NCBI GenBank assembly: GCA_039794085.1
Contig: JBDIWC010000052.1
Span: 1-24,423, forward strand
Length of the DNA stretch: 24,423 bases
Source of the DNA: Gemmatimonadales bacterium
Lineage (GTDB): Bacteria > Gemmatimonadota > Gemmatimonadetes > Gemmatimonadales > GWC2-71-9
Reading direction: 5' to 3'
In this document: one piece after another, positions 4,832 through 24,147 of the stretch
How positions within the stretch are numbered: position 1 is the first letter of the stretch
How the letters are laid out: the number at the start of each line of letters is the position of its first letter
Notes under the pieces: generated by a model
What the model saw: the letters and a program-made list of their open reading frames with translations, nothing else
Database searches by the model: none
Told to the model about the DNA's origin: nothing
Made by a program: the position numbers and the translations under genes

Positions 4832-6438
4832 CTAAGCCGGCAGAGCCGGAACCCAACGGGGTGTCCTCAGGCTTGGCCTGGGTTCATGTACAGTCTGGAG
4901 CGCCTCTCCTACTCCCCGACAGCCAGCCACAAGAAGCACAAAAGGCACAAGACCACCACCCCGAGCGCCCACGCCCGCCACGCCCCCGAACGCAGACCGC
5001 ATCGGTGGTTCCGCCCCTTTCGTGACGGCGAGCCCCCCCTCGGGGTGTCGCCAGAGGCCCCGTTCTGCCACGGCGCTCCGCGACTCGAATACACCGGAGA
5101 CCTCGAAGCTGGATGCCTTCCCAAACGCCGTAAAACACGCTGCCCGTAAGGGTTTCCGGGCGTTGCCCAAAAATATTGTTGCTTTTTGTGTTCAAACTTG
5201 TCCGTAAGGGACTAAAGTCCTAAGTCCTAAGTCCTAAGCCGGCAGAGCCGGAACCAAATAGGCGCCTCGGGGTCGCGTGGGTTCCCCGGGGCTCTCGCCC
5301 GGGGAAACACCACTCGCCTCGACGCGGCGATCCGCGACGTGAACGCACCAAACGCCTCAAAGTTGGATGCCTTCCGGGGAGCCGTCAAACGCACTGCCGA
5401 CAAGCGTTTCCGGGCGGCCTCCGAAGTTTTGTTGTCGTTTTGCGTTCAATCTTGTCCGTAAGGGACTAAGCCGGCAGAGCCGGAACCACAGAGGGGCCTC
5501 GGGGTCGCGCGTGGGTTTTCTTCGGCATGGGTTCCAGTCCCTCTGGAGCCCTCTGCCCACCCCCAGAGCCAACCACAAGAAGCACAAAAGGCACAGAAAC
5601 CTCTCTCGCCCCGGTGGGACCCCATGCGCACCGAGGTGTGCCTCTTGTGACTTCTGTGCTTTTTGTGGCCACTCCCCTTGCACGGCGCGGCCGATACGAT
5701 CGCCGTGACCCGAACGGTCGGCGGGGGGGGGGCGGGAGTCGCCCACAATATTGTGGCCGTCTTGCGTTCAATCTTGTTCCGTAAGGGACTAAGCCGGCAG
5801 AGCCGGAACCACAGAGGGGCCTCGGGGTCGCGCGTGGGTTTTCTTCGGCATGGGTTCCAGTCCCTCTGGAGCCCTCTGCCCACCCCCAGAGCCAACCACA
5901 AGAAGCACAAAAGGCACAGAAACCTCTCTCGCCCCGGTGGGACCCCATGCGCACCGAGGTGTGCCTCTTGTGACTTCTGTGCTTTTTGTGGCCACTCCCC
6001 TTGCACGGCGCGGCCGATACGATCGCCGTGACCCGAACGGTCGGCGGGGGGGGGGCGGGAGTCGCCCACAATATTGTGGCCGTCTTGCGTTCAATCTTGT
6101 TCCGTAAGGGACTAAGCCGGCAGAGCCGGAACCACAGAGGGGCCTCGGGGTCGCGCGTGGGTTTTCTTCGGCATGGGTTCCAGTCCCTCTGGAGCCCTCT
6201 GCCCACCCCTAGAGCCAACCACAAGAAGCACAAAAGGCACAGAAACCTCCTCTCGCCCCGGTGGGACCCCATGCGTACCGAGGTGTGCCTCTTGTGACTT
6301 CTGTGCTTTTTGTGGCCACTCCCCTTGCACGGCGCGGCCGATACGATCGCCGTGACCCGAACGGTCGGCGGGGGGGGTCGGGAGTCGCCCACAATATTGT
6401 GGCCGTCTTGCGTTCAATCTTGTTCCGTAAGGGACTAA
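4832..6438. repeat. Array of five head-to-tail non-coding modules joined at CTAA, including three 323-bp tandem units
   Basis: Modules 4832-5215, 5234-5469, 5466-5792, 5789-6115, 6112-6438. Each begins CTAAGCCGGCAGAGCCGGAACC and ends TTG(C/T)GTTCAA(T/A)CTTGT(T)CCGTAAGGGACTAA. Confidence 0.93.
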
Positions 6439-13752: not shown

Positions 13753-14580
13753 ATGGTCGGTTCCCGCTCCCCCTCGCTTGGATCAATCCCACCGTCGAAC
13801 CCAGTTTCCGCCTTTCCGGGTCGTCGCCGCACATCCTGTGCGACCCCGCGTAGAACCGTCACCGCCAGCACCACCAAGTCAGGTGCCAAGTCAGGTCCGG
13901 ACGACACCACGATCTCACTCCTGATCATCGACGACAACCGCTTGCTCCTCGAGGGGCTGGCGGCGATGATCCGCGCTCAACCGGGATTCCGCGTGCTCGT
14001 GGCCTCCACCAGGGTCGATGAGGCCCTGGCGGCGCTGCCTGACCACACACCCGACATCGTGCTCCTCGATATCGGCCTGGAGGCCCACGACAGCCTCGAT
14101 CTGACCGCGCGGGTGAGCCAGGAGGCCCCCTCGGCCCGGGTGATCGTCATGGGTCTCCTCTCCGGACAGGAAGACGTGGCCGACTACGTCCGGGTGGGGG
14201 CGTCGGGATTTGTCATGAAGGAGGCCTCGGTGGAGGACCTCTTCTCCACCATCCGGGCCGTCGCCCGCGGCGCCGAAGTGCTCCCGCCCGTTTTGACTCA
14301 CACGCTGTTCTCGCAGATCAATCAGGACCCGACCCTTCGGAACGATGCCCGGCGCCTGGAAACCGTGGGCCTGACCGCACGGGAACTCCAGGTGGTCGAC
14401 CTGCTGGGCAAGGGATTGAGCAACAAGGAGATCGCGACTCACCTGAACATCGCCGTGCACACCGTCAAGAGCCACGTGCACAATGTGCTGGAGAAGCTCG
14501 CGCTGCGCAGCCGCCTCGAGGTGGCCGCCTTCTCGCATGGTCAAACACCACCCGACCATCCTTCCCGCCACAACTCCTGA
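13753..14580 (+). CDS. NarL/LuxR-family response regulator (start uncertain)
   Basis: Receiver LLIIDDN...PDIVLLD...GASGFVMK; LuxR HTH LTARELQV...GLSNKEIA..LNIAVHTVKSHV. Confidence 0.9.
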   Translation: MVGSRSPSLGSIPPSNPVSAFPGRRRTSCATPRRTVTASTTKSGAKSGPDDTTISLLIIDDNRLLLEGLAAMIRAQPGFRVLVASTRVDEALAALPDHTPDIVLLDIGLEAHDSLDLTARVSQEAPSARVIVMGLLSGQEDVADYVRVGASGFVMKEASVEDLFSTIRAVARGAEVLPPVLTHTLFSQINQDPTLRNDARRLETVGLTARELQVVDLLGKGLSNKEIATHLNIAVHTVKSHVHNVLEKLALRSRLEVAAFSHGQTPPDHPSRHNS

Positions 14581-14677
14581 TCTCGATCTCTCGCTGTCGC
14601 CAGGGCGTGCCGCGGCCCACCGGCCTGCGAAGGTGGATTGGACCCGCCTCCCGGTGGTCCCTCCGGACTCCATCCCA

Positions 14678-14724
14678 TTTCATCCGTTCGATCGATTGTC
14701 TCCGGCACCTCGAACCCTCACATT
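14678..14724 (+). promoter_or_regulatory. Putative activator-dependent promoter P1
   Basis: GATCGA-TTGTCT-N17-CACATT; same layout as 14894-14928 and 23057-23023. Confidence 0.4.
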
Positions 14725-14881
14725 TTATACCTGCGTTGTACCCCCGCGCTGTACCCATTCCGCGTTGTTTCGGGAGGGACCGGTCATCAGGCCTGTCCCT
14801 CTCCTGCCATCCGGATCCGGTGGCGTCCGAACCCGGGCCCTGCGGACTCCCCGCCTTCGGCATTCGGGTTGACACCTCAGG

Positions 14882-14928
14882 ACTAGCTCCATTGAGCGAT
14901 TGGCGGGCCGACTCCCTTCCGGTAGAGT
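14882..14928 (+). promoter_or_regulatory. Putative activator-dependent promoter P2
   Basis: GAGCGA-TTGGCG-N17-TAGAGT. Confidence 0.5.
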
Positions 14929-15334
14929 TGTACCATGGCACGCTCGCGAGCACACCCCCCGGTGACCCCGGGGACGGATGGCAGTATCCATCGACAGCCG
15001 GAGGGCAGTCGCGGTCATCGACCTGGTGTCAGTGCCGCTGCTCCCGGCTTGGGGAACAGTTCCCGGGAGTGGGATGCCCCCATGCCGGTGGCGGGGTCAT
15101 CGGATCAGCGGACGGAGGGGCGAGTGGATCTCCACAGGGGATCGCCGCCGCACGGGGCCAATGGGGCACTCCCCAGCTGGAGCGGGGACGACTCCCCCGA
15201 CCCCTGGGACTTTTGCGGGCCGATCCCGGGGCGGCGGCGCGCGCACTGATCGAGCGAGAGGCCACCACGAGGACCGCGGGCACGGGGGAAGGGGTCGTCG
15301 TTCGTGAACAAACATACAGTGAGGAGAGTAACTC

Positions 15335-15550
15335 ATGCGTCCACTGGTCCTGGTCGGGATCGTTGTCTTCGGTCTCGGCACCTTTGTGCTCCTGCGGGGA
15401 GCGAGCTTCACCTCCAAGAAGGACGTACTCCAGGTGGGGGACCTCAAGATCACGGCGGACGAGCGTCAATCGGTCCCGCCGTGGCTCGGCGGGGTGGCGA
15501 TGGTGGCGGGTGTGGTTCTCATCGTGGCCGGGGCGCGGAAGCCCTCATGA
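15335..15550 (+). CDS. Small two-helix membrane protein (possibly DUF3185-like)
   Basis: 71 aa, GAGGAG RBS at 15321, two hydrophobic segments flanking FTSKKDVLQVGDLKI. Confidence 0.82.
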   Translation: MRPLVLVGIVVFGLGTFVLLRGASFTSKKDVLQVGDLKITADERQSVPPWLGGVAMVAGVVLIVAGARKPS

Positions 15551-15578
15551 CACCCGCGGTGGGAGTCTGAGGCGTTCC

Positions 15579-16646
15579 ATGGCCTTCCGTGACACTCGCC
15601 CCTCGCCGGGGGACCAGGCTCGTGCCACCCTGGCCTCGATCGGGGACGCGGTCATCACCACCGACCTCTCGGGCGCCATCACGTACCTCAACCCGGTGGC
15701 CGAGCGACTGACCGGCTGGACTCTCGCAGAGGCGCTGGGAGAACCGTTGGACCGCGTCCTGCCCCTCATCGCCGAGGCCAACCGCGCGCCGATCATGGAT
15801 CGGGTGGCACGCTGTCTGGAGGAGGGGCGCTCGACCGACCTGGAGGACGGCGTGCTGTTGCTCCGGCGCGATGGGACCGAGGTTCCCGTCGGCGATTCGG
15901 CGGCCCCCCTTGTGGACCCGGCCGGAAAGACGGTCGGGGTTGTCCTTGTCATGCAGGATGAGAGTGAGAAGCGCCGGGTGGGACGCCGACTCACCTACGA
16001 GGCCACCCACGACGTTCTGACCGGCCTCATCAATCGCCGGGAATTCGACCGTCGGCTGGCGCGCATCCTGTCCGACCTCACGGACACCGATTCAGAGCAG
16101 GCGATGGTGATGCTCGACCTCGATCACTTCAAGGAGGTCAATGATTCCGGTGGGCATGACGCCGGCGACGCGGTACTCCGGAGACTCGGTCCGCTGCTCA
16201 CTCGCCAACTGCGCAAGCGCGACACCCTTGCGCGTCTGGGTGGCGACGAGTTTGGCATCCTGCTGGAAAACTGTCCGCTGGACACGGCGGTTCACATCGC
16301 CGAGGGCGTTCGGCTGGCGGTCGAGCAGTCCCGGTTCACCGTGGAAGGCATCCCGTTCTGGATCACGGCGAGCATCGGCCTGGTTCCGATGACACCGGGG
16401 AGCGGGGGAATGGCGGCGGTGATGCGCGTGGCCGACGCCGCCTGCTACGCTGCCAAGGCGAGCGGAGGCAACCGGGTTCATCGCGGATCGGCGGTGCGCT
16501 CTGACACAGGCTCTCTCCAGGTCCAGGCGCCTCCCGGGACAACTGCGGTGCGACGACCGGAGGGTCGCGGGAAGTGGCGTCACACGGATCAGACCATCGC
16601 GTTGCCACACGGAGCATCGAATGACGCCCTCCTCAGGGACCACTGA
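15579..16646 (+). CDS. PAS-PAC diguanylate cyclase (GGDEF)
   Basis: TLASIGDAVITTD..YLNPVAE PAS; HDVLTGLINRR; DLDHFKEVND; RKRD I-site and intact RLGGDEF; no EAL domain. Confidence 0.92.
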   Translation: MAFRDTRPSPGDQARATLASIGDAVITTDLSGAITYLNPVAERLTGWTLAEALGEPLDRVLPLIAEANRAPIMDRVARCLEEGRSTDLEDGVLLLRRDGTEVPVGDSAAPLVDPAGKTVGVVLVMQDESEKRRVGRRLTYEATHDVLTGLINRREFDRRLARILSDLTDTDSEQAMVMLDLDHFKEVNDSGGHDAGDAVLRRLGPLLTRQLRKRDTLARLGGDEFGILLENCPLDTAVHIAEGVRLAVEQSRFTVEGIPFWITASIGLVPMTPGSGGMAAVMRVADAACYAAKASGGNRVHRGSAVRSDTGSLQVQAPPGTTAVRRPEGRGKWRHTDQTIALPHGASNDALLRDH

Positions 16647-17055
16647 CGCGGCGCGGCGCCTCTGGGCGCGTCTGGCGGGGGACACCCACGAGCCGGTGGA
16701 GATCGCGCGGGTGGCGGGACAGCTCGGGGCGCAGCTCCGGCTGGGGCTGGGGCGCTGGATCGGGGTGGACGCGTACCAGGCACTCCTCGAGCGCGCCGCG
16801 GTCACCGCACGGACCACACATCCAGGTCTCGACGGTGTCTCCTGTCTGGGTGAGGATTCCGCGGTGACTCTCGCGGCGGTGCGAGTCCATGGGTCCGCCG
16901 CGGTGGTGGACGGCCTGGTGGCCCTGGTAGCCCTGGTGATCGAACTGCTGGGCCGGATCATCGGGCAGGAGATGGCAAGACACCTGGTGGAGCAGTGCGG
17001 GGCGCCTCCCCCGCACCCGCTCCCCCGCACGGAATCCAAGGAGAAAGCACCATGA
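16621..17055 (+). CDS. Small helical hypothetical protein coupled to the KaiC-like ATPase
   Basis: 144 aa; internal pseudo-repeat LGRWIG / LGRIIG; ATGA overlap with the ATPase gene. Confidence 0.75.
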   Translation: MTPSSGTTDAARRLWARLAGDTHEPVEIARVAGQLGAQLRLGLGRWIGVDAYQALLERAAVTARTTHPGLDGVSCLGEDSAVTLAAVRVHGSAAVVDGLVALVALVIELLGRIIGQEMARHLVEQCGAPPPHPLPRTESKEKAP

Positions 17056-18755
17056 CGCGCAAACCCAAGGCCGCTCCCGTCACACGGACCCCGGCGTCAC
17101 TGGAGCTTCTGGACACGGGAGTGCCGGGGCTCAACGACGTGCTGGGCGGCGGACTCCCCGCGCTGTCCTTCAACCTGGTCGCCGGCGGCCCCGGGTCCGG
17201 AAAGACGACACTGTCGCTGCAGATCCTCTTCGCGACCGCGACCCCCGAACGACCGGGCCTGTTCATCACCCTCCTCGGGGAAACCTCGCTGAAGCTGCTG
17301 CGGTACCAGCAACTCTTCAATTTCTTCGACCCGGCGCGGATCGGGTCGGACATCCACATTCTGAACCTCAGCGAGGATGCGCTGGAGGGTGACCTGGAAC
17401 GGCTGCTGCTTCGGATCATCGCCGAGGTGGACCGGCTCCATCCACAGGTCGTCGTCGTGGATTCGTTCCGATCTCTTCTGCGGGTTCAGGGGACCTCGGC
17501 CCCGATCCGGGAGATCGAGCGCTTCGTGCAACGGCTGGCGATGCACCTCACGACCTGGGAAGTCACGTCCTTCCTGATCGGTGAATACCCCGAAGCCGAA
17601 CTGCGCGATCCGGTGTTTACCATCGCCGACGGCATTCTCTGGATGACCCAGGAGGCGAACCGCAATTCGGTGGTGCGACAGCTCCAGGTCGTGAAGGCGC
17701 GCGGGATGGCCTCGAAGCCGGGGCTGCACACCCTGCGGATCGGCAGGGCGGGGGTACAGGTGTTCCCGCGAATCCCCGAATCGTCCCGGAGCCTGCACCC
17801 CAGGGGAAACAAGCGGCTGTCGAGCGGCATCCCGGAGCTGGATGAGATGATGGGCGGGGGAATTCCGGTGGGCGATTCCCTGGTTCTCGCCGGTCCCACC
17901 GGAGCCGGCAAGACGACCTTCGCCATGCGGTTTGTAGCGGCCGGCCTCGAAGCGGGCGAAGCGGCGGTGGTGGCGATCTTCGAGGAGCACCCTGACGCCT
18001 ATCTCCAGCGGACCAAGACCGAGGTCGACCTTTCCGAGGCGATGATTCAGGACAAGCTGCGGGTGATCTACCTGCGGCCCCTCGACCTGTCGGTCGACGA
18101 GACCTTCGACGAAATCCGGTCGGCGGTCCAGGCGATCGGCGCCACGCGGGTGGTCATCGACTCGATCTCCGGCTTCGAGATGGCCCTCGCCCCCGCCTTC
18201 CGGATGGACTTCCGGGAGTCTCTCTATCGTCTCATCGGGGCCCTCACCGAACTCGGCGTCACCGTCTTCTCCACCGTGGAGGTCGTGGCCGGCCGGGAGG
18301 GTCCCGGGCTCCAGCTCACCGGGTACCAGGTGTCCTTCCTGACGGACGACATCCTCAGCCAGCGCTACGTGGAAATCGAGGGCGTGCTCCGCAAGGCCCT
18401 GGTGGTGGTGAAGATGCGGGGGAGCAACCACAATCGTGAGTTCCGGTTCTATGAACTCACCGGGAGCGGGGTCCAGATCCACGAGCCGCTCCATGACTAC
18501 GACGGCATCATCACGGGGATGCCCACGCGCAAGCTTCGGCGCCCGCCTCCCGCGCACCCCGGCCTGACCGACCAGGAAGTGCTCGTGTTCGAAATGATGA
18601 CCCGGTCGGGGCCACTCTCACCGGAAACGATCGCCCGACAGACCGGCCTTCTCCCCGCCGAGATCATGCCCATTCTCGATCGCCTGATCCAGCTCGACCA
18701 TGTGAGCCACACCGACGCCGGCTACCTGGCCACCCCGCGATCCCGCGTCCGCTGA
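17052..18755 (+). CDS. KaiC/RAD55-like double RecA-domain ATPase with C-terminal winged-HTH-like extension
   Basis: AAGGAG RBS. TGVPGL..GGPGSGKT..VVVDS..VVKARG (CI); SGIPELD..GPTGAGKT..FEE..VVIDS..VVKMRGS (CII); tail LTDQE...PLSPETIARQTGL...ILDRLIQLDHV. Confidence 0.9.
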   Translation: MTRKPKAAPVTRTPASLELLDTGVPGLNDVLGGGLPALSFNLVAGGPGSGKTTLSLQILFATATPERPGLFITLLGETSLKLLRYQQLFNFFDPARIGSDIHILNLSEDALEGDLERLLLRIIAEVDRLHPQVVVVDSFRSLLRVQGTSAPIREIERFVQRLAMHLTTWEVTSFLIGEYPEAELRDPVFTIADGILWMTQEANRNSVVRQLQVVKARGMASKPGLHTLRIGRAGVQVFPRIPESSRSLHPRGNKRLSSGIPELDEMMGGGIPVGDSLVLAGPTGAGKTTFAMRFVAAGLEAGEAAVVAIFEEHPDAYLQRTKTEVDLSEAMIQDKLRVIYLRPLDLSVDETFDEIRSAVQAIGATRVVIDSISGFEMALAPAFRMDFRESLYRLIGALTELGVTVFSTVEVVAGREGPGLQLTGYQVSFLTDDILSQRYVEIEGVLRKALVVVKMRGSNHNREFRFYELTGSGVQIHEPLHDYDGIITGMPTRKLRRPPPAHPGLTDQEVLVFEMMTRSGPLSPETIARQTGLLPAEIMPILDRLIQLDHVSHTDAGYLATPRSRVR

Positions 18756-20401
18756 TGGCCCTCGGCACGACGAAGCCTGAGCGATGGCGTTCCCGCCGGG
18801 AGTTTGACTCACGCTACCGCCAGCTCGTGGAACTGGCCCCCGACGGGATTCTGGTCCACGACGGCGAGCGGATCGTGCTCGGCAACGCGGCGGCCGTCCG
18901 GCTCGCCGGAGCGAGCTGCCGGGAGGAACTGGTCGGCCTGCCGATCGGCACCTTTCTCGCTCCGCCCTACCTCAAGGCGGTCCAGTCCCTCATCCTGGAC
19001 GACAGGGAACCCGCCGAACTGTCACCTCCGGTCCGGGACACTTTTCGCCGACTCGACGGATCCCTGATCGACGTCGAGGTCCGGGCGGTGGCGTTCATGG
19101 ATCAGGGGTCTCCCTCCGCCCATCTCGTGATTCGCGACATCACCGAACGCCTGGCCCGGGAGCGGTCGGCGCAGGAGCGGGAGGAGAGCGTCCAGCAGGC
19201 GCAGCGCATGGAGGCGGTGGGCGTTCTCGCCGGCGGTGTGGCCCACGAAGTGAACAACATGATGGCGGTGGTGCTGGGGTTCAGCAAATTCCTGCTGGAA
19301 AACCCGCGCCTGCCACCCGCATGTCACGGAGATGTTCTGGAGATCAGGAAAGCGGCCGATCGAGCCGGCTTGTTGACCCGGCAGCTTCTCAGTTTCAGCC
19401 GCCGGGCCGTTCACCAGCCGGTGCCCATGGACCTCTCCGCGGCGGTCCATGACGCCGAGGCCAGTGTCCGCCGGGTCCTGGGAGAGGGCCGGAATCTGGT
19501 GGTGGAGGAGGATGGGTTGCTTCCCGTCCATGCCGATCCGGGGCAGTTCCTGCAGATGATCCTCAATCTTGCGGTCAATGCTCGAGACGCCATGCCCGAC
19601 GGGGGCACTCTCACTCTCACCACCGCCGTGGCCGAGCTTCCGGACAGCATCGCCGCCGGGGATGGGGCGACCATCCCGGCAGGCCGGTATGCCGCTCTCC
19701 TGGTGAGGGATACCGGCATGGGGATCGATCCGGCGGTTCAGGCGCGGATCTTTGAGCCCTTCTTCACCACCAAACCCCTGGACCAGGGAACCGGGCTCGG
19801 TCTCTCCGCGGTCCAGGGCATCGTGGGACAGCACCATGGTTACGTCACCGTGGCGAGCACGTCAGGCGTGGGCACGACATTCACCGTGTTTCTCCCCCTC
19901 CTTCCCACTCCCACACCACTCCCCCGAGAGCGGACTCGTCCGCCCTCCGATCCGACCAGGACCTGGGATGGAGTCACGGTGCTCGTGGTGGATGACGAAC
20001 CGGCCGTTCTCTCGGTGGTCGCCCGTTGTCTGGAGCAGGTGGGATTCCACGTGCTGCAGGCGCGGGATGGAGGTGATGCGCTGACCACCATCGACAGGCA
20101 CGGGCCCCCGGACCTGGTGCTCACCGACCTGATGATGCCGGGCATCGGCGGAGCCGCATTGGCACGGCGATTGAAGGAACAGTGGCCGGATCTGCCGGTC
20201 CTCTTCATGTCCGGGTTCTCGTCTGAGGAACTCCAACGGCAGGGTGCCCTCGACTCCCCGGGTATTCTGGTTCAGAAACCATTCACATTCGACGAACTGA
20301 TGGCCGCCGTCGGGACGGCCCTCCGGCACGTGGCCTCGCGATCCGGGCATGTTTCCCGGATTGAAAGCCGGGCTCGGCGCGCTCCGCGCGACAGGCCCTG
20401 A
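18755..20401 (+). CDS. Hybrid sensor histidine kinase PAS-HisKA-HATPase-REC (CckA-like)
   Basis: PAS; H-box AGGVAHEVNN; N-box NLAVNARDAM; DTGMG, FEPFFTTK, GTGLGL; receiver VLVVDDE..LTDLMMP..FMSG..KP; TGATG coupling. Confidence 0.93.
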   Translation: MALGTTKPERWRSRREFDSRYRQLVELAPDGILVHDGERIVLGNAAAVRLAGASCREELVGLPIGTFLAPPYLKAVQSLILDDREPAELSPPVRDTFRRLDGSLIDVEVRAVAFMDQGSPSAHLVIRDITERLARERSAQEREESVQQAQRMEAVGVLAGGVAHEVNNMMAVVLGFSKFLLENPRLPPACHGDVLEIRKAADRAGLLTRQLLSFSRRAVHQPVPMDLSAAVHDAEASVRRVLGEGRNLVVEEDGLLPVHADPGQFLQMILNLAVNARDAMPDGGTLTLTTAVAELPDSIAAGDGATIPAGRYAALLVRDTGMGIDPAVQARIFEPFFTTKPLDQGTGLGLSAVQGIVGQHHGYVTVASTSGVGTTFTVFLPLLPTPTPLPRERTRPPSDPTRTWDGVTVLVVDDEPAVLSVVARCLEQVGFHVLQARDGGDALTTIDRHGPPDLVLTDLMMPGIGGAALARRLKEQWPDLPVLFMSGFSSEELQRQGALDSPGILVQKPFTFDELMAAVGTALRHVASRSGHVSRIESRARRAPRDRP

Positions 20402-20471
20402 AGGGCGGCGGAAAGTTTGAAGTTTGAAGTTCGAAGTTTGAAGATGGACCCCGGCGTCCGCCGGGGTGACG
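20370..20471. repeat. Dispersed 35-bp repeat, GAAGTTY heptamers and REP-like hairpin between convergent genes
   Basis: GGGCTCGGCGCGCTCCGCGCGACAGGCCCTGAAGG (20370-20404) recurs at 23173-23207. ATGGACCCCGGCGTCCGCCGGGGTGACG (20444-20471) is an inverted near-copy of 10331-10358. Confidence 0.85.
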
Positions 20472-20492
20472 CTCCGATGGCACGGAGGGAAG

Positions 20493-22568
20493 CTACCGGA
20501 ACAGCGGCCAGTCGCGGTGCACGCCCACGGTCAGGGCTGAGCGATGGTCCAGGAGGCCCCGACCGAAATCGATTCGCAGGACGCCCAGGTCCCCCTCGCC
20601 GATCCCGACGCGAAGACCTCCCCCGCCGTCCAGGAAGAACCGGTCGTTGCCCAATCCATCCGCCGCCGAGATCACCCGGGCCCCATCGAGAAACAAGCCA
20701 ACCGCGAAGATGAACGGTCCGACGCGGTGGACGGGATGGTCCCCCGCGAGTCCCGCGTGGAGAATCCCCCGGCCCGCTCTCCGGCCGGCCAGAGCACCAT
20801 CCCGGCTCCCCGGTTCCGCCCGCAGCGGAATGGCCCACGAAATGTTGCTGCCGGTCACCGGCCAGGTCCCCAGCGGGGCCCGCGAGCTCACCCCGTCGAA
20901 CCCGAGACGGGTGGACCAGGCCGCGCGACCCAGCCCGGGCGAGGAGACCCACGTCGCACGGAGGCCACCCCGTGTGTACGAGGAGGGGCCCGAGAGCGCG
21001 GCCGCCTGCTCCCCCACCACCGTCAGTCTGAACCGGTCGCCCCACCCGCGCACCGTGGTCCCGGCCGACATCACCAGGAAGTCCCGGTTCCCGGACCAGC
21101 GCTCCACCCGGACTCCCGCCGACGGCCGCACCCCGGGGGTGATCCACCCGCCGAACTCCACCGCGGCCGATCGTCGCGAGTCCTCGACCACCCGGCCGTT
21201 CGCCGTGTCGAGCGCGAAACGGACCCGCTCCCAGGCGCCCTCCATTCCGATCACCCCCGGGAAGGGAAAGCCGACCGGAATGTCGGACCGGAAGGCGGCC
21301 CGGGGGCGGGCGGTCTCCCAGCGATAGAGAACACTCCAGAGTTCTCCGCCTCCCGTGGGACTGGCCACCTCGAGGCCCACCTCGCTCCGGGCCACGGCCC
21401 GGATCAGGCCCGCCGCCGCCAGGCGCCAGGCGGGACCCACCATCGGGCGTTCCACAACGGCGGCGCGGACCTCCACCACGCCGCCGACAACCGGCTGGTA
21501 GTACACGGACGAGGAGCGGAGCGCGGGGATCTCGGAGACCCGGCGCCGAGCCAGGGCGAGGCGCGATGGAGTGAGCACCGTGGCATGGGGCACCGACATC
21601 GCGTCCGCAATCTGGCGGAACCGGATCTCCCGGGTTCCGTCGATCCGGAGGAGATCCACGGTGGGGCTCCCGAGATGATTCCAGGCGGAGAGTGCGCCAT
21701 CCTCATCGCCGGTGAGGTACCGGCTGGTGGCGAGGATCTGCCACCCCAGCGCGTCCTCGGGAACGAGCGCCAGGTATTGGGTGACGAGTGGGATGGCGTC
21801 GGCATGGCGTCCCTGCCGGAATCGGACAGCGGCCATCTCCCTGAGGATCACCGGTTCCCGGGGGCAGGCCTGCCGGGCTTCCGCGAGCAACCGGGCGGCG
21901 GCATCCAGTTGGTCGGCGGCCACGGCGTCGAGCGCCGAGTCGATCCAGGGAGCGCATGGCATCGGATCCGGCGGCGGCGGCGGAACCGGGGCCTCGGAGG
22001 GTACGACAGGCGACGAGGTCGGGGTCGGCATGGGCCGGATCACCAGTGCCCAGCGATCGGCCACGCCCCATCGCGCCATAAAGGTGGTCTCGTCCATGGT
22101 CATGAAGGGGGCAAGGGCGGGATCATGGATCACGACCGTGCCACCGCTCCATGCGAGCACAACGACGTAGTGGTATTCGTCGCGGCCCGACTCGATGAGG
22201 GCCACCACCGGGATGCTGTCGCGGAGGGACTGTTGAATCAGGTCGGGGGTCCCGCGAAAGGCCCGGGTGTCCCATCCCCGGGCGCGGGTGGCCGAGTCGA
22301 GTTCCGTCGTAAGAATCCCGCCCCGGTCGTGCCGCACCAACGCGCTGAAATCCTCGGCGTACACACCCCGTCGCCCCCACCATCGCTCGACCATGGCGAC
22401 GGCCGCGCCACCGCAGAGCAAAACCGATTGGGGGAGATAGGGTACATCCAACACCACAGGAGAACCGGGGGGCGGCCCCGCGGGGGGAGCTTGCGCCATC
22501 CCCGCGGTGCTGCCGATTCCAGTCAGGATCCCCAGTCCCGCCATGACGAACCGCACGGTGGACCGCAC
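20493..22568 (-). CDS. Exported C39-like cysteine peptidase fused to TPR, POTRA-like and Omp85-like beta-barrel domains
   Basis: Signal-like N-terminus; VPYLPQ..LCGGAAVAM (Q47, C52), HYVVV (H133), HDP (D149); Pro linker; TPR helices; POTRA-like LRIDG..ARRRV..VVERP; barrel end GGGLRV..LRIDFGRGL..LTVGV. Exact start uncertain (22568/22556/22544). Confidence 0.8.
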   Translation of the reverse strand: MRSTVRFVMAGLGILTGIGSTAGMAQAPPAGPPPGSPVVLDVPYLPQSVLLCGGAAVAMVERWWGRRGVYAEDFSALVRHDRGGILTTELDSATRARGWDTRAFRGTPDLIQQSLRDSIPVVALIESGRDEYHYVVVLAWSGGTVVIHDPALAPFMTMDETTFMARWGVADRWALVIRPMPTPTSSPVVPSEAPVPPPPPDPMPCAPWIDSALDAVAADQLDAAARLLAEARQACPREPVILREMAAVRFRQGRHADAIPLVTQYLALVPEDALGWQILATSRYLTGDEDGALSAWNHLGSPTVDLLRIDGTREIRFRQIADAMSVPHATVLTPSRLALARRRVSEIPALRSSSVYYQPVVGGVVEVRAAVVERPMVGPAWRLAAAGLIRAVARSEVGLEVASPTGGGELWSVLYRWETARPRAAFRSDIPVGFPFPGVIGMEGAWERVRFALDTANGRVVEDSRRSAAVEFGGWITPGVRPSAGVRVERWSGNRDFLVMSAGTTVRGWGDRFRLTVVGEQAAALSGPSSYTRGGLRATWVSSPGLGRAAWSTRLGFDGVSSRAPLGTWPVTGSNISWAIPLRAEPGSRDGALAGRRAGRGILHAGLAGDHPVHRVGPFIFAVGLFLDGARVISAADGLGNDRFFLDGGGGLRVGIGEGDLGVLRIDFGRGLLDHRSALTVGVHRDWPLFR

Positions 22569-22590
22569 CGGCGCGTCAACGTGCCAGTGC

Positions 22591-22968
22591 TTACACCGCC
22601 AGCAGGATGAGCACGAGCAGAATAATGATGATCACCGTGGTGCTGATCACCACCTTCTGGTCCCCGCCGGCCAGGACCTGGTCGGTGACCCCGGCCTGCT
22701 GGGCAAGCCGATCCAGCGACGCCCCGTCCAGGGCGGCCACCCGGGCCGACAGATCGGCGGGACTCACTCCCATCTGGCCGGCCACCTGCCGGGCGCGATC
22801 ACTGGAGAGAAGAGAACGGACCGCTTCGCGATTGGCCCCCGGACGGGCCGCGACGGCGGCATCCAGGTCAGTGGTGCTGACGGCACTCCGATCCTGGGCG
22901 ACCAGTGGGGAAGCGACACCGAGAGTGGTGGCGGCAGCAAGCAGGGAAAGCGAACGATATCTGGACAT
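22591..22968 (-). CDS. PA2779-like exported protein with AGG motif and C-terminal hydrophobic tail
   Basis: GAGGAG RBS; signal peptide ending LVA-Q; GVSPADLSARVAALD..L..LA; LAGGD followed by VIIIILLVLILLAV. Confidence 0.82.
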   Translation of the reverse strand: MSRYRSLSLLAAATTLGVASPLVAQDRSAVSTTDLDAAVAARPGANREAVRSLLSSDRARQVAGQMGVSPADLSARVAALDGASLDRLAQQAGVTDQVLAGGDQKVVISTTVIIIILLVLILLAV

Positions 22969-23022
22969 GCGAACTCCTCGGGAAACGGCGGGCATGAAGA
23001 CCCGCTCAGTGTCGGACCCTGA

Positions 23023-23092: not shown

Positions 23093-23115
23093 TCCTGGCG
23101 GGGGACCTCACGGAC

Positions 23116-23173
23116 CACGCGAGCAGTCGCTCACGGGATCGCCACGGACCCCTGCGGGGTCCTCGCGATGACG
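23116..23173. repeat. 58-bp direct repeat, copy 1 (REP-like, GATCGCCACG...CCTCGCGATGAC)
   Basis: Matches 24090-24147 with 2 mismatches; internal hairpin GGACCCC-TGC-GGGGTCC. Confidence 0.9.
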
Positions 23174-23289
23174 GGCTCGGCGCGCTCCGCGCGACAGGCC
23201 CTGAAGGCCGGCAGAAAGTTCGAACTTCAAACTTCCCTTCGCGTCATCGCGTCTTCGCGTGACCCTTCGAGACTGGAAGCCCGGGCGGG

Positions 23290-23973
23290 TCAGCGCGGTG
23301 GGTTCGGCCGACTGGCGTGAAGAATCGCAGCGTTCCAACCACCCGGACCACCGGCCACCCGCTCCCCCAGCTCGAGGATCAGGTCCTCCTCGGTGGTCAT
23401 GCGAAGGCCCTTGACCGCTTCCTGAAACCGATGGGCGCCGACAGGTCCCTCAACCCCCACGAGGAGGAGGGTGATAGTGCGCCCCTCCAGTCGCGGCTCA
23501 CGGGCAGGGTTGGAGGTCAGGCTTCCCGGAACACCCAGGGAGTAGCTGCAGAGGACCCGGCCACTGGCGGTCGAGGCATCGGGGTCTCCACCGACTCGGG
23601 TACAGAAGCGGTTGACACCCCCAACCTGGAATCCGGTGGACCCGCCACCACCGCTGTGGACAGTATTCTGGGAACCCGCACCGGCCTCATTCGGTGACCT
23701 TCCCCAAGCCACTTTCCACAAACCCTGGGATCGCCTCGTGGGGAGAGAATCGTCCGTGAGGCCGAGAAACCGAACTCCCGTCGGAGCCATGACGTAGACA
23801 CCCACTGTCATCGGAAGCTCCGACTCGATGACTATCCGACCCCGGTCGAAATCCGCAGAAACGACGCGAAACGAGGGTGGGTCGGCCTCGGGAGACGGAG
23901 GAGGAACCGGCTGGACCGACACTCCCGGGCCGCATGCACCCAGCATCGACACCAGGACGATACTCGCTCTCAT
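23290..23973 (-). CDS. Orphan lipoprotein
   Basis: GGAGG RBS before ATG 23973; lipobox MLGAC; 227 aa; no family recognised. Confidence 0.7.
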   Translation of the reverse strand: MRASIVLVSMLGACGPGVSVQPVPPPSPEADPPSFRVVSADFDRGRIVIESELPMTVGVYVMAPTGVRFLGLTDDSLPTRRSQGLWKVAWGRSPNEAGAGSQNTVHSGGGGSTGFQVGGVNRFCTRVGGDPDASTASGRVLCSYSLGVPGSLTSNPAREPRLEGRTITLLLVGVEGPVGAHRFQEAVKGLRMTTEEDLILELGERVAGGPGGWNAAILHASRPNPPR

Positions 23974-24089
23974 GGGGCACCTCCGGGTTGGTCCTTCTGC
24001 GAGTCGGAACGCTCCCGACTCACCACTGAGAGTGCCTGCTTGCAGGTGCCAAGTCAAGTCCGAGACTCGGACGGCTAGCCATCCCGGAT

Positions 24090-24147
24090 CACGCGAGCAG
24101 TCGCTCACAAGATCGCCACGGACCCCTGCGGGGTCCTCGCGATGACG
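24090..24147. repeat. 58-bp direct repeat, copy 2
   Basis: Matches 23116-23173. Confidence 0.9.

Follow-up and report, generated by a model that had tools for sequence, protein, structure and literature searches.

We found that a gene pair in a 24,423-nucleotide contig of a Gemmatimonadales bacterium (JBDIWC010000052.1, assembly GCA_039794085.1; the whole stretch is called the window below) encodes a small exported protein of the PA2779 family, followed by a large protein in which a C39 cysteine peptidase precedes tetratricopeptide repeats (TPRs), a POTRA domain and an Omp85-type barrel. We tentatively favor a reading, whose chance we set a little short of even, in which a periplasm-facing protease mounted on an outer-membrane barrel cuts the small partner after a Leu-Ala-Gly-Gly (LAGG) motif and the barrel engages the hydrophobic tail behind it. 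The evidence, established by comparison of sequences, comprises the domains and the catalytic set of the large protein, the linkage of the two genes, the loss of Gly-Gly along with the protease, and the survival of barrel and partner where the protease is gone. The parts of the two genes are as follows (pLDDT, predicted local distance difference test).

22968-22591, minus strand: PA2779-family small exported protein, 125 aa, ATG start, NF033919 match; the likely substrate
22897..22968, minus strand: predicted Sec signal peptide, residues 1-24 (A24/Q25 junction), judged by eye; P21, A24 and Q25 at least 90% conserved
22663..22674, minus strand: LAGG, residues 99-102, with the putative cut after G102; Gly-Gly in 72/72 loci with a fused protease, lost with the protease
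22594..22662, minus strand: 23-residue tail made of a short strand-like segment, Ser-Thr-Thr and a poly-Ile/Leu stretch; conserved above the body
22568-20493, minus strand: C39-TPR-POTRA-Omp85 fusion, 691 aa, GTG start
22032..22451, minus strand: C39 cysteine peptidase domain, residues 40-179 (PF03412; Q47, C52, H133, D149)
21957..22031, minus strand: Pro-rich flexible linker, residues 180-204, low pLDDT at 184-201
21678..21956, minus strand: TPR segment, residues 205-297, TPR_14 above cut-off, with Cys205 and Cys235
21450..21662, minus strand: one POTRA, residues 303-373, beta-alpha-alpha-beta-beta in both AlphaFold models, aligning with the last BamA POTRA
21387..21431, minus strand: predicted amphipathic helix, residues 380-394, at the position of Omp85 strand beta-1 (both AlphaFold models, block pLDDT 92-93)
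20517..21383, minus strand: Omp85-type barrel of 15 long strands, bearing the loop-6 motif LRA(H/E) (R583 invariant) and the F-x-D-x-A lid-lock motif

The best evidence for a cut of the partner at Gly-Gly is that motif and protease are lost together. Among 401 genomes of the class, 63 carried the partner, and these were sorted with the large-protein profile into genomes with the fusion (30), with a barrel lacking C39 (7), and with neither found (26). Gly-Gly was present in 32/32 partner copies from fusion genomes, compared to 2/11 copies beside C39-less barrels and 2/31 copies where neither was found (a count that omits one partner copy cut by a contig end); that is, it was present in 4/42 copies where the C39 fusion was not found, and all four of these were without the preceding Leu-Ala. 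PF13529 was not found in 3/7 protease-less genomes nor in any of the four orphan genomes checked. In a quick tree of 36 rows, the C39-less barrels formed one clade within the fused ones (Shimodaira-Hasegawa-like approximate likelihood-ratio test, SH-aLRT, 99); two genomes with neither protein found cluster with this clade and may represent assembly gaps. Thus, the idea of the first-pass annotation that the C39 domain cuts at Gly-Gly is supported by this pattern, and we consider such cleavage likely. Since one clade kept both barrel and partner when it lost the protease and LAGG, an action of the barrel itself upon the partner is likely, and the protease-less loci provide a natural control for a barrel acting alone. 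In these loci, TPR-POTRA-barrel genes stand directly behind mostly Gly-Gly-less partners (G666:C9, G720:C81, G684:C79, G774:C63, G722:C180, G738:C113 and G154:C120; locus labels L360, L355, L343, L351, L353, L364 and L267). In one family of genomes from the class sample (f9; e.g., loci L292, L293, L340, L348), some genomes have two copies of the small gene, and Gly-Gly is mostly lost and the tail kept.

The small protein scored 48.3 bits against the NF033919 PA2779 model (cut-off 40), and its description from the letters alone, as an exported protein with a signal peptide, a helical body before LAGG, and a hydrophobic tail, was confirmed, the N-terminus being signal-like. Conservation was higher in the tail than in the body (mean identity 0.76 and 0.63, compared to 0.40). 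The tail, whose Kyte-Doolittle mean reaches 3.05 in a 19-residue window, was 21-26 residues long after Gly-Gly in 71/72 loci and had at most one basic residue within its last four positions in 72/72. When the 54,130 open frames of the genome were compared with a profile of the tail, one protein matched, and the tail is therefore not a sorting tag shared by many proteins. Viewed as a double-glycine leader, for which GG, GA or GS at -2/-1 and a hydrophobic residue at -4 are expected, the sequence has Gly-Gly at -2/-1 in 72/72 loci and Leu or Met at -4 in 70/72. In P. stutzeri, a PA2779-family gene was within the top 3% by expression under four conditions, according to the accessible part of PMC10155442.

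The linkage between the two genes is tight. They lie on the minus strand with the small gene first and 22 nt between them, as the first-pass annotation had noted, and its proposed link to PA2779-like genes was confirmed by the neighborhood survey: the partner lies directly upstream in 76/76 loci that have upstream DNA (73/80 with the whole gene, 3 with its tail at a contig edge, and the other 4 without upstream DNA). Conversely, among 80 loci picked by the partner, the large gene was next in 57 and absent from that place in 10 whose contig extends at least 300 nt further downstream, and 13 were too short. Of 201 genomes surveyed in the phylum, 14 gave a partner match, and the 11 in which we found the barrel all belong to these 14; because it occurs in just 11/201 genomes, the system is accessory. 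We scored 7991 candidates and obtained 420 full-length homologs of the large protein, far beyond chance; cluster representatives at E up to 1e-30 numbered 547, some of them fragments, and the close relatives were Gemmatimonadales.

The large protein has the Gln/Cys/His/Asp set of the papain fold, as expected for Peptidase C39. PF03412 matched with 32.6 bits (cut-off 22), the C39 profile matched the peptidase domains of ComA, PCAT1 and 6mpz, and the intact set reported from the sequence was confirmed in a wider sample: Q47, C52, H133 and D149 were all there in 149/149 aligned diverse full-length members. Cys52 was also kept in 107/121 close rows, with the remaining 14 rows starting downstream of it. 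The linker that follows had a median length of 25 residues (range 18-61) in the 149 full-length rows. In the TPR segment, Cys205 and Cys235, a likely periplasmic disulfide, were both kept in 146/149. We consider a periplasmic location of the protease very likely. The PA2778 model NF033920 covered residues 40-295 only and scored 56, compared to its cut-off of 150. A lipobox-like Cys (pattern match) was found in addition to the barrel in 20/72 fusions.

That the C-terminal part of the large protein is an outer-membrane Omp85 barrel we regard as practically certain. The AlphaFold model of residues 298-691 (pLDDT 95.4; predicted template-modeling score 0.90) has a POTRA followed by an Omp85-type barrel fold, the order that defines Omp85 proteins; Foldseek matched the barrel to TamA/BamA (E 1e-14), and comparison with TamA 8us3 aligned 355 residues (Z 26.7, root-mean-square deviation 4.5). 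Between the last POTRA and the end of the chain, a profile alignment with 30 BamA sequences of the phylum was collinear (local probability 95.2, global 97.7). The barrel predicted at first pass for the C-terminal half was therefore modeled as such, and the TPRs and single POTRA were likewise recovered, by TPR_14 and AlphaFold. The Omp85-type signature claimed for the C-terminus fared less evenly: the barrel stands, by AlphaFold and the TamA/BamA match, but the chain lacks an aromatic residue at its end, where a short tail extends beyond the last strand, and a model of 15 strands and a helix had not been foreseen. Moreover, PF01103, the family named for checking the barrel, had no Pfam match in the large protein, and in its relatives was above cut-off in 1/27 and below it in 2 more. 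In Omp85 proteins, the loop-6 motif (L/M/V)RG(W/Y/F) locks onto F-x-D-x-G of strand 13 (PMC11358297, available excerpt). Both motifs are present here in variant forms aligned with those of BamA: LRAH in 120/149, with R583 invariant, and the F-D-A lid-lock form in 139/149.

In place of the usual 16 strands, both models have only 15 long ones, with a helix occupying the register of beta-1, and we consider it very probable, as modeled, that a helix takes the place of this strand. Residues 380-394 fall in the BamA beta-1 register by profile alignment, and the segment from E373 to G408 is fixed at 36 residues in 143/149. By periodicity, 74% of 149 rows were helix-like in this segment, compared to a strand-like pattern for BamA beta-1 in 30/30; the equivalent segment was helix-like in 5/7 split-form and 7/7 protease-less barrels by the same noisy test. 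Covariation (335 rows, effective 246) supported the helix weakly, with values of 1.03 at i+4 and 0.58 at i+2 inside it, compared to 0.97 at i+4 for strand beta-4, and a pair R390-V681 (z 5.1), in an analysis that was noisy, with many implausible top pairs. By topology, the helix would run from the periplasm outward. VDAC has a parallel seam with a helix in the lumen, and helix 380-394 may fill the wall or lie in the lumen behind such a seam. We file the large protein, on the strength of the models, as an Omp85-derived variant rather than as a canonical member. In BamA, beta-1 is the strand by which substrates are bound (PMC11116518, accessible part). Since a separate BamA and four other PF01103 genes are present in the genome, the C39-fused barrel is an extra Omp85. 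Beyond BamA and a TamA-like gene, these comprise three more PF01103 genes, L083 (G000:C1:87427-91026), L084 and L085, one of them in a 1106-aa frame.

We also found related architectures in which the parts are separate. The phylum of an Acidobacteriota genome contributed six loci in which a gene for a free exported C39 is followed by a separate TPR-POTRA-barrel gene; in the split loci (L260-L266), the free C39 has 170-190 aa and the partner body ends in Ala-Gly, and the C39 gene belonging to L266 lies on another contig (L297). Other C39-TPR proteins have no barrel; the 10 judged by eye (L180, L181, L182, L205, L208-L211, L217, L219) all carry a lipobox-like Cys and are without the H/N-D-P third catalytic motif; the peptidase and partner genes are convergent in L181, and L205 has two tandem partner genes. 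A midpoint-rooted C39 tree of 44 rows placed the fused and split forms together, apart from the lipoproteins (94/92). A search for shorter homologs yielded 70 proteins, of which several were annotated as partial and many came from short contigs, and did not reach the lipoprotein family. A plasmid search gave 2 weak ABC-transporter matches and did not find the partner.

In the reading we favor, the small protein would be exported and held by its hydrophobic tail, and would be made in excess over the enzyme; the TPR-POTRA arm and the linker would let the protease reach the cleavage site, the cut after LAGG would release the tail from a periplasmic pro-domain, and a helix-gated seam might then take up the tail and place it in the outer membrane. 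Binding of the tail by the barrel seems moderately probable, and its final residence in the outer membrane possible but doubtful. A bolder form, which we think unlikely, would make the large protein an outer-membrane counterpart of PCAT, with a lateral gate that has a helix for beta-1 and inserts the helical tail of a dedicated precursor, and with C39 as an optional module that removes the pro-domain; if true, an Omp85 protein would here serve as the insertase of a helical peptide rather than of beta-barrels.

The main rival, to which we also give a low probability, treats the barrel as an outer-membrane post from which the protease spans the periplasm and cuts a partner whose tail sits in the inner membrane, the body being released or, in the manner of a sortase, moved to an envelope amine. 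The hydrophobicity of the tail would suffice for anchoring in the inner membrane, the linker is long, the conserved loop-6 lid motifs suggest a closed pore (motif as defined in the available excerpt of PMC11358297), and the lipobox-like Cys in all 10 barrel-less C39-TPR relatives judged by eye implies that a lipid anchor can replace the barrel. However, the barrel remains beside the partner after protease loss in seven genomes, the conserved part of the partner is the tail rather than the body, and an altered beta-1 is unnecessary for an anchor. Retention of the barrel without C39, its separate gene in the split form, and the fusions that have a lipobox-like Cys as well all point to a function beyond anchoring; the simplest version, in which the barrel merely substitutes for a lipid anchor, is weakened by these 20/72 fusions and by the barrels that persist without the protease.

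Two further explanations give the C39 domain another task. It might bind the partner without cutting it, or act elsewhere, the pair being a chaperone/inhibitor or toxin-immunity couple. This is improbable, given the catalytic set in 149/149 members and the decay of Gly-Gly upon C39 loss, although the leader lacks the expected residues at -7 and -12 and other activities are possible for C39-like folds (PMC13642728, accessible part). In the portion available of a transposon screen, PA2778 is listed as a candidate type VI secretion system toxin beside a candidate immunity gene, without follow-up (10.1101/733030); here, the partner survives loss of the protease, and an immunity gene would have no such need. 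Alternatively, following the type-Vd-like framing of the first-pass annotation, the large protein could be a type Vd autotransporter that carries its C39-TPR passenger out to the cell surface, where a surface-exposed partner or outside substrates would be the targets. The order of enzyme, POTRA and Omp85 barrel does parallel PlpD (PMC4104836, available portion), but the precedent for a secreted passenger is gone because PlpD keeps its enzyme domain, the patatin domain, in the periplasm, and passenger transfer to the cell surface by PlpD is itself contested (PMC11116518, in the text accessible). Since the Cys205/Cys235 pair also points to periplasmic folding, and split, lipoprotein and C39-less forms exist, we judge this explanation very improbable.

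Several observations weigh against the favored reading of cleavage and tail uptake. The leader has a hydrophobic residue (L/I/V/M) at -7 in 1/72 loci and at -12 in 9/72 (5 and 30 if Ala is counted). Since the PCAT leader rule of hydrophobic residues at -4, -7 and -12 (PMC10885120, excerpt) is followed at -4 alone, recognition must differ here. One C39-like protein is inactive on double-glycine peptides (PMC13642728, accessible part), and wider partner proteins carry Ala-Gly in place of Gly-Gly. The co-loss itself amounts to about two or three events, not 42: in a quick tree that took in 55 of the 74 copies, the Gly-Gly-less partners formed two clades (91, 86) and one long branch, and these quick trees have few columns. 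Moreover, 4/7 C39-less genomes hold one other PF13529 gene elsewhere, of which one was inspected and is divergent. As a test for the helix, periodicity is noisy: BamA beta-2 also comes out helix-like in 77% of rows. A tail this hydrophobic would normally stop in the inner membrane. Finally, 23/23 genomes of family f9 keep the partner with neither barrel nor protease found; given a partner without the barrel in this family and the barrel-less lipoprotein systems, the barrel is dispensable in many lineages.

Around the gene pair, the following features were noted.

22974..22979, minus strand: Shine-Dalgarno-like GAGGAG preceding the small gene, from a motif survey of 72 loci
20369-20475, 23108-23242 and 24082-24147: repetitive extragenic palindromic (REP)-like intergenic repeats around the operon, with pieces present 4 to 112 times in the genome

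Shine-Dalgarno-like motifs preceded the small gene in 68/72 loci, compared to 4/72 for the large gene (chance 0.11), with start codons of the large genes assigned by rule; this contrast and the high expression of a PA2779-family gene in P. stutzeri are in line with an excess of the small protein over the enzyme. No sigma-70 promoter was found for the operon. Direct repeats of 64 nt on either side of the operon are portions of genome-wide repeats (four tested pieces had 8, 112, 100 and 4 genome copies), and for this reason we dropped the idea of a mobile element. The pair adjoins a signaling block (13753-20401) that encodes a NarL-type regulator, a PAS-GGDEF protein, a KaiC-like double ATPase, a PAS hybrid kinase and a 144-aa protein without a family match; a NarL-type regulator and a KaiC-like gene were seen again beside the pair in other loci. 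Upstream lies a 272-aa open reading frame (23290-24108, minus strand) with an internal lipoprotein-like start and no Pfam or NCBIfam match, and farther away in the window (5446-6392), about 110 codons form a block that recurs within each of two open reading frames in tandemly repeated DNA. Among 98 loci, recurring neighbors were a response-regulator cluster in 28, a YiaD/OmpA lipoprotein in 13, an AI-2E transporter in 8, and also small membrane proteins. These neighbors hint at an envelope or general-stress role, and envelope upkeep is most likely the physiological purpose, as the neighboring genes alone suggest. Among the 40 largest neighbor clusters of these loci, we found no recurring modifying enzyme or ABC exporter, and a cluster for a peptide made on the ribosome and modified after translation (RiPP) was rejected on this basis. 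An RNA run (0.10 share) covered both genes of a relative's contig at about 92% identity with flat depth; DNA carry-over is possible, and the run was not used.

Among known systems, the closest is the PA2778/PA2779 pair (NF033920, NF033919; Pfam DUF6627), which has the same small-protein family and gene order and is already catalogued, unfused, in NCBIfam. The large protein has a related C39-TPR part, which shares 29% identity across 163 residues with one full member of the PA2778 family, but that family consists of lipoproteins of about 300-350 aa without a barrel, whereas the large protein adds POTRA and barrel; likewise, the catalytic Asp motif is kept in barrel-linked C39s and missing from the 10 PA2778-type lipoprotein forms examined. 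In the literature, we found no functional characterization of the pair (PA2779 is mentioned as a neighbor of bswR in the accessible part of PMC3985676), and no description of the barrel form in a search that left most subscription papers outside. The joint loss of Gly-Gly and protease thus gives a first testable substrate and site for this widespread pair, and the favored reading, with its predicted helix for beta-1, would if true describe a new kind of cell-envelope processing machine.

The logic is similar to that of PCAT/AMS transporters (PCAT1, ComA, LahT), in which a related C39 domain is fused to a membrane transporter fold and a long-leader Gly-Gly precursor gene adjoins. In contrast to those systems, both proteins are exported here, a barrel in the outer membrane without an ATPase forms the membrane part, positions -7 and -12 do not conform, and there are no recurring modifying enzymes or ABC exporter nearby. 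Compared by description only, GlyGly-CTERM/rhombosortase and other C-terminal sorting signals also combine Gly-Gly, a hydrophobic C-terminal segment and a dedicated protease. However, GlyGly-CTERM tags many proteins and the tail here has one target per genome; rhombosortase is an intramembrane rhomboid and the C39 protease a soluble papain-fold enzyme, and there is no basic cluster here. If the tail does reach the outer membrane, this would reveal a way by which alpha-helical peptides can enter it.

With the Omp85 proteins (TamA, BamA, the patatin-Omp85 protein PlpD, metallo-Omp85), the large protein shares the POTRA and barrel fold, the loop-6 Arg motif and the F-x-D motif. It differs from them in a predicted helix for beta-1 and 15 predicted strands, in having no terminal aromatic residue, and in its dedicated partner gene, and the part of an Omp85 survey available to us (PMC4104836) does not have C39-TPR among its ten subfamilies. 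If the models are right, the helix-for-beta-1 lineage, with fused, split and protease-less members in at least two phyla, would represent a new architecture among such barrels and offer a natural means of testing lateral-gate function. The type Vd protein PlpD has an enzyme domain fused ahead of POTRA and barrel, as here; its passenger is patatin-like, whereas the N-terminal domain of the large protein is C39-TPR.

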